Below are positions 1,773 to 4,689 of a stretch of 20,451 nt of DNA, piece after piece. Source of the stretch: Bdellovibrionales bacterium (GTDB taxonomy: Bacteria; Bdellovibrionota; Bdellovibrionia; Bdellovibrionales; UBA1609); NCBI GenBank assembly GCA_050246815.1, contig JBFWVI010000049.1, positions 1-20,451 of the forward strand. Reading direction: 5' to 3'. Below the pieces are notes generated by a model. That model saw only the letters and a program-made list of their open reading frames with translations, had not been told where the DNA came from and did not search any database. The translations under genes were made by a program, and so were the position numbers. Position 1 is the stretch's first letter. Each line of letters begins with the position of its first letter.

Positions 1773-2381
1773 TTAGACGCGGTCTCCAACTTGAATATAA
1801 ATATGCGGCCTTGAGCTCTTGGTGGCAGGGTATGGGCAATCCGGTGAGCTCCAGCTTAGGGGGGGGGGGGGCCCGAGTTCGTCTTGTTGTTTAGTGATCG
1901 TTGAAAGATGTGGGAGGGGAGTGTAAAAGCCAGCCACGGCTAAAACCGCGGCTGGAACTAAAACTAAGTCACTTACATTTTTGGTAATTTTCTTAATCGC
2001 CTCTCGGCTTCTCCAAAGCGCAAGGTCAATTACATTCTCCTTCTCGCCCTTAGGTCCTTTCGGGAATACTCTCTGGGGTATCAATGTCAGGTCGGCTGTA
2101 TTGAGAAGTCCTACAATCTTTACCTCCTCCCAGCAATACCACGATAAAACGCTACGCCATTCATCGTTGGCTACAAGGAAGTACTCAAGTCCGCTTGTGC
2201 ACACCAACTTGTATTCAGAGCTTCGAGTGGCACTCACTTCCTTATCCCAAGGCACGACTACGCCAGAAAGTGTGACGGGTGTCAGGACGTTTTTGGAGTA
2301 ACCCCTCGATGGTTTCTCCAAAGGGTGGTTTGGTTCTACTTTTTCTCCCTTCATTTTTTTGAAAGTTAAAAGCGATTTCAT
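1773..2381 (-). CDS. Hypothetical protein with a possible OB-fold-like beta domain; last gene of the HPF-like operon
   Basis: GGAGG SD at 2389-2393, 7 nt before ATG 2381. Pattern VTLSGVV...EYFLV...EEVKIVGLL, then a hydrophobic stretch LVLVPAAVLAVAGF. The C-terminal tail crosses a G13 run and looks non-native. Confidence 0.7.
   Translation of the reverse strand: MKSLLTFKKMKGEKVEPNHPLEKPSRGYSKNVLTPVTLSGVVVPWDKEVSATRSSEYKLVCTSGLEYFLVANDEWRSVLSWYCWEEVKIVGLLNTADLTLIPQRVFPKGPKGEKENVIDLALWRSREAIKKITKNVSDLVLVPAAVLAVAGFYTPLPHLSTITKQQDELGPPPPLSWSSPDCPYPATKSSRPHIYIQVGDRV
1859..1871. repeat. G13 homopolymer tract (C13 on the coding strand, encoding poly-Pro)
   Basis: Seen directly: tta-G13-cccgag. Confidence 0.95.
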
Positions 2382-2398
2382 AACGATACCTCCCAATT

Positions 2399-2749
2399 TT
2401 AGCCCGCCATAGCCAACAAATCAGGGTTATTACTTAAGTCAGACTTCCTAGAGACGGGCCGACCGCCAGAGTGCTTCCACGCTTTTAGGCACTCCCGTTT
2501 TACTCTTGCGTACAGATTTTCTAACACTTGAGTCAGTGACGGACCCCTCTTGTAGACCCCAATCGGAACGTCGTTCGCCTTGCTCCAAAGCAGTCCTTCA
2601 TAAACATGGCCGCATTTTAAAAGCCGCATACTAACGTCCGAGGACGGCGAGATGGCCTTTATTGCCGTCACGATCTGACGGATCTTTTCTTCCGCATCGT
2701 GGTTAATACCGACGCCGTCGTTGTAAATTGTTGCGCCCGCTAAAACCAT
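2399..2749 (-). CDS. HPF/RaiA-like small protein, copy 3 (most divergent; 116 aa)
   Basis: GAGGAGGT SD before ATG 2749. Predicted beta-alpha-beta-beta-beta-alpha pattern. The ISPSSDVSMRL segment parallels RSPSDSAIKMAM in copy 1, and the C-terminal helix is basic (YARVKRECLKAWKH). Confidence 0.55.
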   Translation of the reverse strand: MVLAGATIYNDGVGINHDAEEKIRQIVTAIKAISPSSDVSMRLLKCGHVYEGLLWSKANDVPIGVYKRGPSLTQVLENLYARVKRECLKAWKHSGGRPVSRKSDLSNNPDLLAMAG

Positions 2750-2765
2750 AAGACCTCCTCTCTGC

Positions 2766-3119
2766 TTAGGAAGCAAATTGCTCCCTCCAAAATTGTTTTT
2801 TTCGGTAACAAATTCGTTTCTTACTTATTCTATGCACCTGTCTCAAAATCCCTTTGCGAACCTTTCTTAAAACGGCCATTACATTTTTGCCTTCTTTGCT
2901 GATGACAATTGGCTCGCCAAGACCATAGACGCTCATTGAAACCGAAAACAAATGTTTGTCTTTGGCCTCGGGCTCAATGTGCACTTGAACATCGGTATCC
3001 CAGCCGGACTGCGACTTGATTTCTTTTACAATGTGGTCAGCATATTGCTTAACCGCCTCAGTCTGAGTTAAGTCCTTAGCTTGAAACTCATACATCAATT
3101 CTTGGTTCATAAAACTCAT
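2766..3119 (-). CDS. HPF/RaiA (ribosomal S30AE-family) ribosome-associated protein, copy 2 (117 aa)
   Basis: YEFQAKDLTQTEAVKQYADHIVKEI resembles the HPF N-terminus (I.I.GKN.E.TEAL..Y...KL.KL). IVISKEGKNVMAVLRKVRKGILRQVHRISKK resembles the HPF last strand and helix (..DMYAAID....KLERQL.K.K.K). ATGA overlap with the upstream gene. Confidence 0.75.
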   Translation of the reverse strand: MSFMNQELMYEFQAKDLTQTEAVKQYADHIVKEIKSQSGWDTDVQVHIEPEAKDKHLFSVSMSVYGLGEPIVISKEGKNVMAVLRKVRKGILRQVHRISKKRICYRKKQFWREQFAS

Positions 3120-3445
3120 ACGTACTCCTCGACAGTAATTTGCGATTCATCATTCAGAAAGCGACGACTCTTCCAGCGGTCCAATTGGTCAGCGATTTTC
3201 TTTTCGACCTTCTTAATGGCCTTAATTGGGTTATCACTGATAGCTTCAGCGGCAAATATTCCAGCATGAGATACAACACGACAAGACGCCTGAACAGCGC
3301 CTTTACTTAACTTCATTGCCATCTTAATCGCGGAATCGCTGGGCGAACGAAGGTGTAATCTCTCTGCGACGGTCGAGATGAAGCTTTTCACTTCGTATTC
3401 GGGATCAAATCCTACAAATTCAAATTGCACACAATCGTTGTGCAT
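3116..3445 (-). CDS. HPF/RaiA-like small protein, copy 1 (109 aa)
   Basis: AAGGAGG SD before ATG 3445. VQFEFVGFDPEYEVKSFISTVAERL ... GIFAAEAISDNPIKAIKKVEKKIADQLDRWK matches the HPF-fold pattern (A.A.SED...AI......L..QL). Confidence 0.7.
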   Translation of the reverse strand: MHNDCVQFEFVGFDPEYEVKSFISTVAERLHLRSPSDSAIKMAMKLSKGAVQASCRVVSHAGIFAAEAISDNPIKAIKKVEKKIADQLDRWKSRRFLNDESQITVEEYV

Positions 3446-3545
3446 AGCCCCTCCTTTCAACGTGGCTATTACGCTGTCGCAAATATTCATCAAGATGGAA
3501 CTGCACCAGCTCAACGAAAATTGTAAGTTGTAACGTTTGGGTTTA

Positions 3546-3581
3546 TTACCGGCGCCGGTTGGGTGGGATACCTGATCTCAC
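3546..3581 (-). CDS. Putative 11-aa leader peptide MRSGIPPNRRR
   Basis: AAAGGAGGT SD (3595-3587), 5-nt spacer, GTG start at 3581, tandem TAA TAA stops. Lies between a promoter candidate and the first HPF-like gene. Confidence 0.55.
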   Translation of the reverse strand: MRSGIPPNRRR

Positions 3582-3666
3582 TTTGTACCTCCTTTAATAC
3601 GTCCAGGGCACGCATCAGAGTAAAGAAGCTACATTTGTTTGCAAAAGCCCTGTTGTTTCCAACCTA

Positions 3667-3694
3667 ATTTTGTAGTCGGTAAAAAAAATGTCAA
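3667..3694 (-). promoter_or_regulatory. Promoter candidate for the leader/HPF-like operon (TTGACA-N16-CAAAAT)
   Basis: Perfect TTGACA at 3694-3689 and CAAAAT at 3672-3667, downstream of the Hsp20 terminator. Confidence 0.5.
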
Positions 3695-3768
3695 GTGACC
3701 ATGGTTCCAAAACTGGACCATTTTAAAAATCCTAGAAATTTCAAAAATTTAATGTGCGATGTAAAGAG

Positions 3769-3802
3769 AAGGGCGGAGTCTCAAGTTGAGACAACCGCCC
3801 TT
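3769..3802 (-). terminator. Rho-independent terminator of the Hsp20 gene
   Basis: AAGGGCGG / CCGCCCTT stem enclosing GTCTCAA-G-TTGAGAC, followed on the minus strand by CTCTTT. A second hairpin ATCTTGC-TTAC-GCAAGAT lies at 3807-3824. Confidence 0.75.
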
Positions 3803-3837
3803 GAGGATCTTGCTTACGCAAGATTTTTAATGGGTGC

Positions 3838-4386
3838 CTAGGATACCTTTACGTCCTTCAACTCTTTGGTCCCTTCTTTTTTGGAGCCCAAGAGTTTGCC
3901 AAAGAAACTGTTCTGACCGCTTTGGATTTGAATAGTTCTTCCTTTGGCGACTTCGGCTTTAGGGAGGGCGACATTCAATACACCATTTTCATAGTGCGCT
4001 TCGATCTTTTCAGCGTTGACGGTAGTCGGTAATGTGAAAGTTCGCTCGAACTTGCCATAGGCTCGCTCGTGTCGAAGAGTGGCCTCGCCATCTTCTTCTT
4101 TCATTTCGTATTGTCTTTCGCCCGAAATAACCAGTTGGTTATTTTGAACTTCGATTTTAATGTCCTCTTTTTTTACGCCAGGCATATCAAAGCTCACGAG
4201 GTAATAATCCTTAGTTTTTTTGATGTCGCAGCTAGGTTGAAAATTGACCGTACTTGCGTAGGCGGGCCGCAGAAAGCTATTCACAATTCGGTCAAAATCA
4301 TCAAAGAGATCTCCCATAACAATGTCGGGAGATAGGCCGCGACGTGACCACGCCCAGTCTGGGGTAAACGGACTTAACATTCTCAT
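3838..4386 (-). CDS. Hsp20/alpha-crystallin small heat-shock protein (182 aa)
   Basis: Motifs PSCDI..., DMPGVKKEDIKIEV, ERAYGKFERTFTLP and AHYENGVLNVALPK. AGGAGGT SD before ATG 4386. Confidence 0.97.
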   Translation of the reverse strand: MRMLSPFTPDWAWSRRGLSPDIVMGDLFDDFDRIVNSFLRPAYASTVNFQPSCDIKKTKDYYLVSFDMPGVKKEDIKIEVQNNQLVISGERQYEMKEEDGEATLRHERAYGKFERTFTLPTTVNAEKIEAHYENGVLNVALPKAEVAKGRTIQIQSGQNSFFGKLLGSKKEGTKELKDVKVS

Positions 4387-4441
4387 TGTGTACCTCCTAT
4401 GGTTAAGGGTCATTGGTTTCATAAAAATTACTTCTAATCAA

Positions 4442-4469
4442 AAAATGTGTGGTCCGCAAAATCTGTCAA
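4442..4469 (-). promoter_or_regulatory. Hsp20 promoter candidate (TTGACA-N16-CATTTT)
   Basis: CTTGACA at 4470-4464 and CACACATTTT ending at 4442. An inverted repeat AGACA-N8-TGTCT sits just upstream at 4477-4494. Confidence 0.5.
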
Positions 4470-4689
4470 GACGGCAAGACAAAATTTTCTGTCTCATCCT
4501 TTGATCCTCGCGAATTTCAAAACAATTTTATCCTTATCTGTTGGATACTCCTTTGTTTGTTGATGATATCGTCTGCCTCCAAATTGCTCTGCTTTTTTTG
4601 CCGAAAGATGGATTTACTTTTTGTGGCGTCAAGTTCCGCACAAAATAGGTCTAAAAAATCTAGTGGTTTTGAATATTTGTGTCGGCCAC

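Follow-up and report, generated by a model that had tools for sequence, protein, structure and literature searches.

The leader ORF and its conservation

The window analysed here, i.e. the whole stretch of 20,451 nucleotides (nt) from a Bdellovibrionales bacterium, contains a short leader open reading frame (ORF) upstream of an HPF-like gene, designated gene A. Coordinates are positions of the window; the leader, the genes of the downstream module and the neighbouring hsp20 are all located on the minus strand. A Shine-Dalgarno sequence (SD), AAAGGAGGT, was read from the sequence at 3595-3587 and is followed, after a spacer of five bases (ACAAA), by a GTG start codon at 3581-3579. The ORF, likewise read from the sequence (3581-3546), encodes MRSGIPPNRRR in 11 codons ahead of TAA; the codons after GTG are AGA TCA GGT ATC CCA CCC AAC CGG CGC CGG. 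The stop codon occupies 3548-3546 and a second TAA follows directly at 3545-3543. The codons CCA CCC AAC (3558-3566) for Pro-Pro-Asn are the predicted pause site, Pro-Pro (PP) being common to all leader classes described below. The ATG of gene A (3445-3443) is positioned exactly 100 nt past the first leader stop, and the leader SD is about 135 nt upstream of this main start. The 100-nt spacer (3446-3545) is made up of an A/U/C-rich, G-poor stretch, one or more hairpins and a strong SD, GGAGGGG, at 3454-3448; its sequence is poorly kept between subgroups of leaders. An earlier note on this DNA had described the SD, the GTG start, the peptide, the tandem TAA, a 12-bp palindrome and the 100-nt distance, all of which were correct to the base on the minus strand.

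Taken alone the leader ORF could be due to chance. Among 2160 control genes from the genome of the window, 222 (~10%) are preceded by some SD-led ORF with a length of 2-60 codons in the region from -300 to -30, and a PP-containing one is present at 9 of the 2160, corresponding to 9 of 246 such ORFs. It is the conservation across relatives that makes the leader ORF significant. Homologues of gene A were detected in 40 of 61 related genomes by protein search and in 255 of 384 genomes of the order by profile search; a single-protein search for related loci returned one irrelevant 20-residue match only. The locus set was composed of the loci returned by the search and 80 further fetched places, ranked down to E 8.5e-22; one place with 117 nt upstream only and everything ranked lower were omitted. 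Removal of duplicates left 124 distinct HPF-like loci. An SD-led ORF is located wholly within -300 to -30 in 50 of the 124. PP-containing SD-led ORFs are present at 34 of the 124 loci, i.e. 34 of the 55 SD-led ORFs there contain PP. In 100 dinucleotide shuffles of these upstream regions a PP ORF turned up at 0.78 loci on average and at 3 at most. Thus conservation of the upstream ORF ahead of orthologous operons, which the earlier note had proposed as a check, was borne out.

The nearest relative of the same genus has MRSGIPPNRLR at the same place. A strict DNA pattern (SD, 4-7 nt, TG, 6-15 nt, GGN RTH CCN CCN RAY) matched in 23 of 384 genomes of the order, and the reversed pattern gave no match in the same 384 genomes. 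In an even sample of the phylum the strict pattern was found in 4 of 201 genomes, all four of them from the order of the window, and in none of the 155 sampled genomes outside the order. Two complete genomes, G097 and G102, carry the leader. The leader ORF is thus genuine and conserved across one bacterial order.

A core, G-[IV]-P-P-[NDS], is common to 18 of the 34 PP leader loci. The peptides of this GIPPN class have the layout M-R-x-x-G-[IV]-P-P-N-x-x-x; examples are MRSSGIPPNPQR, MRSTGIPPNKFS, MRSSGIPPNPLP, MRIPSGVPPNLIR, MKIPLGIPPNKLR, MEAFSGVPPDSF, MRPTGIPPNEYR and MMSGIPPSRLWY. For codon analysis we used 27 distinct GIPPN leaders, which include 8 found by the DNA pattern and one, L027, that lies outside the 34 and was included manually on account of its broken HPF-like gene. 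In the codons for Gly, Ile/Val, Pro, Pro and Asn the third base is variable throughout, with 2 to 4 different letters at each. The distance from the start to Gly is 3, 4 or 5 codons, so that all insertions and deletions are in frame. GTG (18 leaders) or ATG (9 leaders) is located 5-6 nt behind an SD in 27/27, the stop codons are TAA in 19, TAG in 5 and TGA in 3, and a start codon is replaced only by another start, a stop codon only by another stop. Selection acting on the amino-acid sequence has thus preserved the ORF with its SD, its start and stop codons and the G-[IV]-P-P-N core. A chance ORF is excluded by this coding signature.

The leader of L027 (genome G006, ~1359-1500), MMSGIPPSRLWY, is intact. 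Its HPF-like gene appears broken, with only 36 residues aligned and an internal stop, and may be a pseudogene that has retained its leader.

Other classes of leader peptides are unrelated in sequence and have PP or PPP near the C-terminus. Examples end in ...NIPPPLLYPI, ...LHPPPSSTPLS, ...NLPPPVRL, ...AVPPPL, MALPPPI, ...GHPPRQ, ...FRPPDARPSI, ...SHPP-stop or ...LSPP-stop. PP is the sole feature common to all classes. The 41 unique PP leaders comprise 22 with PPN, 8 with PPP, 3 with PP-stop, 3 with PPS, 2 with PPD and one each with PPR, PPI and PPE; PPN, PPP and PPD thus account for 32 of the 41. PMC13602936 places PPN, PPD and PPP among the highest-pausing PPX motifs in Escherichia coli without EF-P, and PMC4176338 reports that residues preceding the prolines modulate stalling. 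The PP leaders have 7-39 residues with a median of 13 (11-13 codons in the GIPPN class), and 0-8 codons follow the last Pro with a median of 4. Among the 24 unique GIPPN peptides exactly four codons follow in 20 and a single terminal Arg is present in 15, while the tail itself varies, e.g. RRR vs RLR, PQR, KFS or PLP. Of the features pointed out in the earlier note, PP is kept by selection across otherwise unrelated leaders; the RRR tail is variable. The likening to arrest peptides of the SecM and RAPP type was not supported, as the motifs RAPP, RAPG and (G)IRAGP are absent from all 41 unique leader peptides.

The genome of the window holds a second, independent case. On contig C17 (~48.2-48.8 kb, minus strand) a paralogue that shares 45% identity with gene A is preceded by a TTGACA promoter, a strong SD and a leader of its own, MKPTLNAPPEHTE, with the motif APPE. 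A scan of the whole genome gave no convincing case of a PP leader besides these two. Among the other loci, leaders without Pro-Pro were seen at the same position. MYLDEDFP (L014) and MYLDEYFP (L066) both end in Pro-stop, MKVYRSMFLIE (L008) has no Pro at all, and MSSGINPRLDQ... (L112) resembles a GIPPN leader minus one Pro and reads on. These four may be decayed or variant forms.

Transcription, RNA structure and the downstream genes

A sigma-70-like promoter (3667-3694) was identified by a consensus scan with 10/12 matches; it consists of TTGACA at 3694-3689, 16 nt and CAAAAT at 3672-3667. A part of it, cTTGACAttttttt, aligned in 17 of 19 leaders. Together with a hairpin and U-run at 3800-3763 behind the upstream hsp20, the promoter places the leader ORF mid-way in a 5' untranslated region (UTR) of about 215 nt. 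A conserved box, ATGGTCCAGTTTT, was recognized by eye at 3709-3721 in the upstream regions of the window and of L003, L004, L027 and L051. It is located just upstream of the -35 hexamer and is a possible regulator binding site, perhaps for a stress regulator. A palindrome, GAAATTTC, is found further upstream at 3735-3742.

The RNA data were contigs of relatives which are 85-95% alike and demonstrate presence, not starts, ends, strand or level. Contigs from RNA libraries covered the leader at 3372-3633 (X14), 3336-3637 (X15), 3373-3624 (X21) and 3538-3649 (X20). They derive from three metatranscriptome studies, and in two of these the leader is bridged to the start of the HPF-like gene. Another contig of X14 carries a further leader, MRSSGIPPNP. 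A 10-kb contig of X22 may be of DNA origin. The RNA contigs stop at 3624-3649 and the DNA contigs reach 3673, 3688 and 3800, which is a weak hint of a transcript 5' end just downstream of the predicted -10 hexamer. 31-mers of the region 3050-3850 recur in many metagenomes and metatranscriptomes from groundwater, soil, wastewater and sludge, and the contigs place recurring 31-mers on the leader.

The leader SD is predicted to be masked by a 5' hairpin (3587-3628) with a minimum free energy of -17.7 kcal/mol. It is formed by an anti-SD, CUUCUUUA, at 3628-3621 and the SD side, UAAAGGAGGU, at 3596-3587, and its apical stem is AUGCGU/ACGUAU (3615-3610 / 3602-3597). The SD helix, CUUCUU(U):AAGGAGG, was the sole consensus helix returned by RNAalifold for the 27 leaders. 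Each of its 7 pairs is formed in 24-27 of the 27, and 94.7% of its cells are paired in the MAFFT alignment A2; double changes do not occur because the SD never varies. The unpaired fraction of the leader SD had a median of 0.21 in the 34 PP leaders, compared with 0.41 for the SD of the HPF-like genes at the same loci and 0.42 for 300 control genes with a strong SD; 12% of the controls were as low as the leader SD. In the window the SD was predicted to be unpaired to 0.10 at 15-45 °C and to 0.12 at 55 °C. Since no opening is predicted anywhere between 15 and 55 °C, the hairpin does not resemble a simple RNA thermometer, and this candidate was rejected.

A second helix is suggested by the alignment between CAGGGC (3647-3652) and GCCCUG in the apical loop (3609-3604). 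Here 78.7% of the cells are paired and 4 of 6 pairs have changed on both sides, e.g. to GUGCGC:GCGCAU in L063 and GUAC:GUAC in L039. This is moderate support for an alternative or pseudoknot helix that would compete with the hairpin or knot onto it. Overall 77.1% of the cells in alignment A2 are paired, compared with 40-52% for slid partners; this value was also attained in 24 of 500 column shuffles, so the support by covariation is modest. The whole UTR is not unusually stable with a z-score of 0.27 against shuffles. The non-coding 5' part of the leader (3587-3660) is nearly identical in the same-genus relative, the gene A proteins being 78% identical.

Within the ORF a hairpin, ACCG-GCGC-CGGU (3548-3559, -4.3 kcal/mol), is predicted at the palindrome ACCGGCGCCGGT and extends from the codons for the second Pro and Asn into the stop codon, of which it includes the first base. 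Its usual form is A-CCGAA-N3-5-UUCGG-U. The z-score was below -1 in 17 of the 27 distinct leaders, and the hairpin is absent from the NKFS, NKFI, NLCS and NLLF forms. The palindrome pointed out in the earlier note is thus present and often replaced by a comparable hairpin, while its exact sequence is not conserved; in the nearest relative it reads ACCGACUUCGGU. The frequent final Arg follows from the pairing of its CGG codon with a CCG codon for Pro, and the hairpin probably also explains the fixed spacing after Pro.

A hairpin of the same kind as that on the leader SD was seen directly on the SD of the HPF-like gene in L016 and L072, which have no leader ORF. The SD of the HPF-like gene is masked in 9 of 74 leaderless loci. 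L016 and L072 would be compatible with leader translation acting positively on expression, yet two cases do not carry an argument.

A cmscan of 3000-4600 against Rfam at E up to 10 gave three weak matches, none of them in 3446-3700; accordingly neither the raiA motif nor any other covariance model matched the leader. A consensus scan detected no terminator-like site in the spacer (3545-3446), and an intrinsic attenuator thus received no support in the window. In some relatives a spacer hairpin followed by U-rich sequence was seen by eye, which is not a systematic count. At 3426-3444, inside the 12 codons with which gene A begins, there is a terminator-like hairpin, UGCACAACGAUUGUGUGCA then AUUUGAAUUU. 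Its conservation in the nearest relative is only partial, and conserved codons alone may account for it.

The leader is followed by four genes (1773-3445). Gene A (3116-3445) encodes 109 amino acids and matched PF02482 with 24.9 bits against a cut-off of 23.7. An AlphaFold2 (AF2) model built with 15 relatives had a predicted local distance difference test score (pLDDT) of 87.5 and a beta-alpha-beta-beta-beta-alpha layout. The top match in the PDB by Foldseek was 4hei, HPF of Vibrio cholerae, with TM scores of 0.73/0.86 and a root-mean-square deviation of 1.6 Å, and nearly all of the 32 matches at E up to 1e-3 were HPF, RaiA or protein Y. A profile of gene A retrieved HI0257, protein Y and RaiA by sequence with E values of 1e-4 to 4e-2. 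The nearest clusters in the ESM Atlas are mostly from Bdellovibrionota, which we regard as a lead and not as a classification. The HPF-like call of the earlier note is thereby upheld by profile and modelled structure, which indicate an HPF/YfiA fold; by this fold the protein would be of the ribosome-binding type.

Gene B (2766-3119, 117 amino acids), the start of which overlaps the stop of A, matched PF02482 with 24.9 bits and aligned to the profile of A in hhalign with a probability of 70% and E 4e-5. With the NCBIfam equivalog for yfiA, TIGR00741, A scored 15 and B 19.2 bits, below the cut-off of 40.9. Gene C (2399-2749, ~116 amino acids) gave no match in Pfam or NCBIfam. Its hhalign alignment to the profile of A was collinear over 84 columns (probability 28%, E 6e-4), and it is likely a third, distant HPF-like paralogue. 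Gene D (1773-2381, ~202 amino acids) is the last gene of the module and matched neither Pfam nor NCBIfam. We thus regard the module as a tandem of three diverged paralogues with an HPF fold, C being the weaker assignment, plus protein D. No resistance gene was found among the module proteins in scans of Pfam and NCBIfam. The canonical HPF of the same genome is encoded on contig C27 (57.5 bits), and no ORF was found upstream of it. It adjoins a gene end read as a candidate RpoN-like protein.

The hsp20 gene (3838-4386, PF00011 100.9 bits) is located upstream of the leader, and tblastn found Hsp20 in 22 fetched loci from at least 15 genomes. Homologues of B, C and D recur in the fetched loci with a gene order that differs between genomes. 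Of the 8 new leaders found by the strict pattern, 5 precede homologues of gene B, 1 of C and 1 of D, and 1 runs off the contig end; in L147 the homologue of gene D is directly behind a GIPPN leader. The distance between leader and module gene is 23-163 nt, always in cis. In its sequence contexts the leader thus behaves as a cassette for the whole module.

A proposed role for Pro-Pro pausing and its alternatives

We consider it reasonably probable that the conserved leader ORF is translated and sets the output of the downstream HPF-like operon in cis via pausing at Pro-Pro-Asn. The translation-sensing leader envisaged in the earlier note is supported in part, the coupling of ribosome status to expression being a proposal. 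Translation of the leader is suggested by the coding signature. For pausing we infer from three points: PP is the only shared feature of the peptides, it belongs to the strongest kind of EF-P-dependent motif, and mgtL, SecM and tna are precedents. The genome of the window encodes both EF-P and Rho. Entry of ribosomes into the leader would be gated by the hairpin masking the SD. A ribosome would then dwell at PPN, an EF-P-dependent motif, for a time set by the activity of EF-P, by prolyl-tRNA or by the overall capacity for elongation. While its P site holds Pro and its A site Asn, such a ribosome would cover about 12 nt of the mRNA further downstream; since four codons follow the last Pro in most GIPPN peptides, the leading edge of the paused ribosome would be situated near the stop codon. 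The parked ribosome may keep Rho or RNases off the G-poor spacer, or may refold the spacer, as in tna or mgtL. Slow elongation would in this way lead to more of the ribosome-silencing paralogues, the direction of the effect and the coupling step being proposals. A more specific version, in which the polyproline leaders gauge elongation capacity and a shortage of EF-P or prolyl-tRNA switches on the three HPF-fold paralogues and the fourth protein beside hsp20, is possible, but we regard it as doubtful.

Several observations weigh against such a role. In 74 of the 124 HPF-like loci there is no SD-led ORF within -300 to -30, in 67 there is none anywhere in the 400 nt examined, and with a PP leader in only 34 the leader must be dispensable for the HPF-like family. 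The loci are mutually related and hence not independent trials, so that the counts overstate independence; yet simple inheritance without selection would not account for leader peptides that have diverged so far. The GIPPN set was picked by a peptide regular expression or the DNA pattern, and this choice in part enforces that codon positions 1 and 2 do not vary. It enforces neither the wobble variation nor the insertions and deletions nor the behaviour of start and stop codons. A mechanism acting on the downstream SD finds no support: masking a ribosome footprint of 27 nt left the accessibility of the HPF-like ribosome binding site unchanged in 19 leaders (0.38 free vs 0.37), accessibility being the unpaired fraction in partition-function folds, i.e. 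in thermodynamic models only. SecM-like unmasking thus gained no support. Nor was there a terminator-like site in the spacer of the window that would speak for attenuation as a coupling step. The composition of the 40 nt after the stop in the 34 loci (A 0.34, C 0.18, G 0.11, T 0.36) is AT-rich with a mild excess of C and no clear rut site, which is suggestive of a Rho site at most. Moreover, EF-P at a normal level would resolve PPN quickly, so that the pause may be short, and the hairpin on the leader SD, predicted to be closed from 15 to 55 °C, leaves the access of ribosomes to the leader unexplained. Finally, both leader translation and pausing are deduced from sequence.

Some of the same features would also suit a constitutive 5' stabiliser or ribosome-docking element, where the SD and the short ORF hold a ribosome, Pro-Pro prolongs its stay and the mRNA is shielded from 5'-end-dependent decay or Rho with no sensing involved. 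The STAB-SD of Bacillus thuringiensis cryIIIA and ribosome stalling in erm leaders are analogues. The perfect SD far upstream of the main start, the G-poor, unstructured spacer after the ORF, the PP near the end of the ORF in 41/41 unique leaders and the folds of 19 leaders, in which no alternative-structure switch was found, agree with it. Yet neither a conserved G-[IV]-P-P-N peptide nor the masking of the SD by a conserved anti-SD is required for stabilisation, and STAB-SD are not known to have an ORF behind them, which makes this explanation unlikely. That masking might instead be the essential feature, with the RNA structure being the regulator, e.g. a thermosensor or a factor binding site in which CUUCUUU:AAGGAGG opens on heat or by a factor, and the ORF being secondary. 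The SD:anti-SD helix is indeed the best-conserved RNA feature, hsp20 is the upstream neighbour in loci of at least 15 genomes, and in L016 and L072 the hairpin is directly on the HPF-like SD with no leader ORF. We give this view a low probability because the hairpin is predicted to remain closed on heating, a masked SD is found in only 9 of 74 leaderless loci, and neither the conservation at the amino-acid level nor PP in unrelated leaders is explained.

The remaining explanations concern the peptide or dispense with it. An antibiotic-sensing leader of the erm, cat or ABCF type, in which the drug-bound ribosome arrests and induces the HPF-like proteins, would account for a leader in front of proteins that are ribosome-binding by fold, and R/K-X-R/K, described as macrolide-dependent in PMC12583479, follows PP in 7 of the 24 unique GIPPN peptides including RRR of the window. 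But the motif is absent from 17 of the 24, the conserved part is GIPPN and not the tail, the terminal CGG codon for Arg is explained by its pairing with CCG, and the module contains no resistance gene; this explanation is slightly less probable still than that of an RNA regulator. A trans-acting micropeptide of 11-13 residues, binding for instance the ribosome or the HPF-like proteins, would explain why the conservation of S-G-[IV]-P-P-N exceeds the need of a bare PP pause. It is very improbable given that the other leader classes share PP only and that the peptide is very short and always encoded in cis at a short distance before a module gene. We attach least credence to a chance ORF in a conserved non-coding leader or to an SD-bearing small RNA, the latter having been offered as an alternative in the earlier note. 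In their favour are the 10% of control genes with some SD-led upstream ORF and a 5' part of the leader that is more conserved than the coding region. The three-base periodicity of variation, the in-frame insertions and deletions and the class-only substitutions of starts and stops speak against chance, and a small RNA is unlikely as there is no terminator-like site behind the ORF, the RNA contigs run into the HPF-like gene and Rfam gave no match at E up to 10.

Significance and relation to known systems

In full-text searches, which did not cover subscription journals and supplements, no paper was found that describes a leader ORF ahead of HPF-like genes, and none that deals with leader peptides of Bdellovibrio. 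Neither was a functional study of the module members A-D with hsp20 found in the literature searched. A handful of enterobacterial cases, such as mgtL, mgtP and SecM-type arrests, are known in which a leader exploits slow Pro-Pro bond formation. The leaders described here thus appear to be a new, lineage-restricted family of polyproline leader peptides with a new class of target and a function that we infer. The Pro-Pro leader principle would be used here as a conserved modular cassette, in another phylum and on proteins that fold like hibernation factors. Should the pause be read out in the way proposed, the elongation speed of the ribosome itself would tell the cell when to make the proteins that silence ribosomes. 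In the more specific version regarded above as doubtful, ribosome speed would feed back directly on ribosome silencing in predatory bacteria of the Bdellovibrio type, perhaps when they pass between attack and growth phase. The locus offers a testable handle on the control of hibernation-factor paralogues and on the uses of EF-P-dependent motifs outside model bacteria. In addition, unannotated short ORFs are flagged in at least 34 of 124 loci, as is the four-gene stress module A-D with hsp20.

Among known systems mgtL and mgtP of Salmonella, the leaders of mgtA and mgtCBR, are close in principle. According to PMC5021804 and PMC12856214 their Pro codons tie the progress of the ribosome to the supply of proline or EF-P. 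Like them the present leader is a short SD-led ORF with Pro codons in a long 5' UTR; it has its own SD and start there, a conserved frame and consecutive Pro codons as XPPX. On the other hand, the peptides are unrelated, the targets of mgtL and mgtP are Mg2+ transporters and virulence genes and not ribosome-binding proteins, and the phylum is another one. MgtL furthermore works together with a riboswitch for Mg2+ and a Rho site that has been defined; for the present leader neither an alternative structure nor a rut site could be made out. In tna the stalled ribosome covers an adjacent rut site and blocks Rho, as described in PMC5021804. The likeness to TnaC is a ribosome held at the end of the leader, which is predicted here from PP at 0-8 codons before the stop and the G-poor stretch that follows. 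TnaC differs in that it senses free tryptophan, stalls at termination and has 24 residues, while an elongation pause at PPN is predicted for the HPF-like leaders.

SecM and the RAPP/RAGP peptides ApdA and ApdP regulate a downstream gene by pausing that is centred on proline at the peptidyl-transferase step. The arrest motif of SecM ends in G-I-R-A-G-P, which loosely resembles G-I-P-P-N. Yet the GIPPN leaders have 11-13 residues and lack a RAPP/RAGP motif, a secretion signal and a force sensor. With the fourU and ROSE elements the leader shares the vicinity of a small heat-shock gene and a U-rich strand that binds the SD by A-U and G.U pairing; it differs in that the hairpin would gate the leader ORF and not the heat-shock gene and, by prediction, does not melt at 15-55 °C. 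The STAB-SD of cryIIIA is similar in being a perfect SD far upstream of the main start. However, it is not known to be followed by a start codon or ORF, whereas the leader has GTG or ATG and a conserved ORF in 27/27. The raiA motif, a structured RNA listed in Rfam, is found upstream of raiA and hpf genes in Firmicutes and Actinobacteria and is thus, like the leader, a conserved element upstream of hibernation-factor genes. In contrast to this large structured RNA the element of the window appears to be a coding leader, and it matched no Rfam model.

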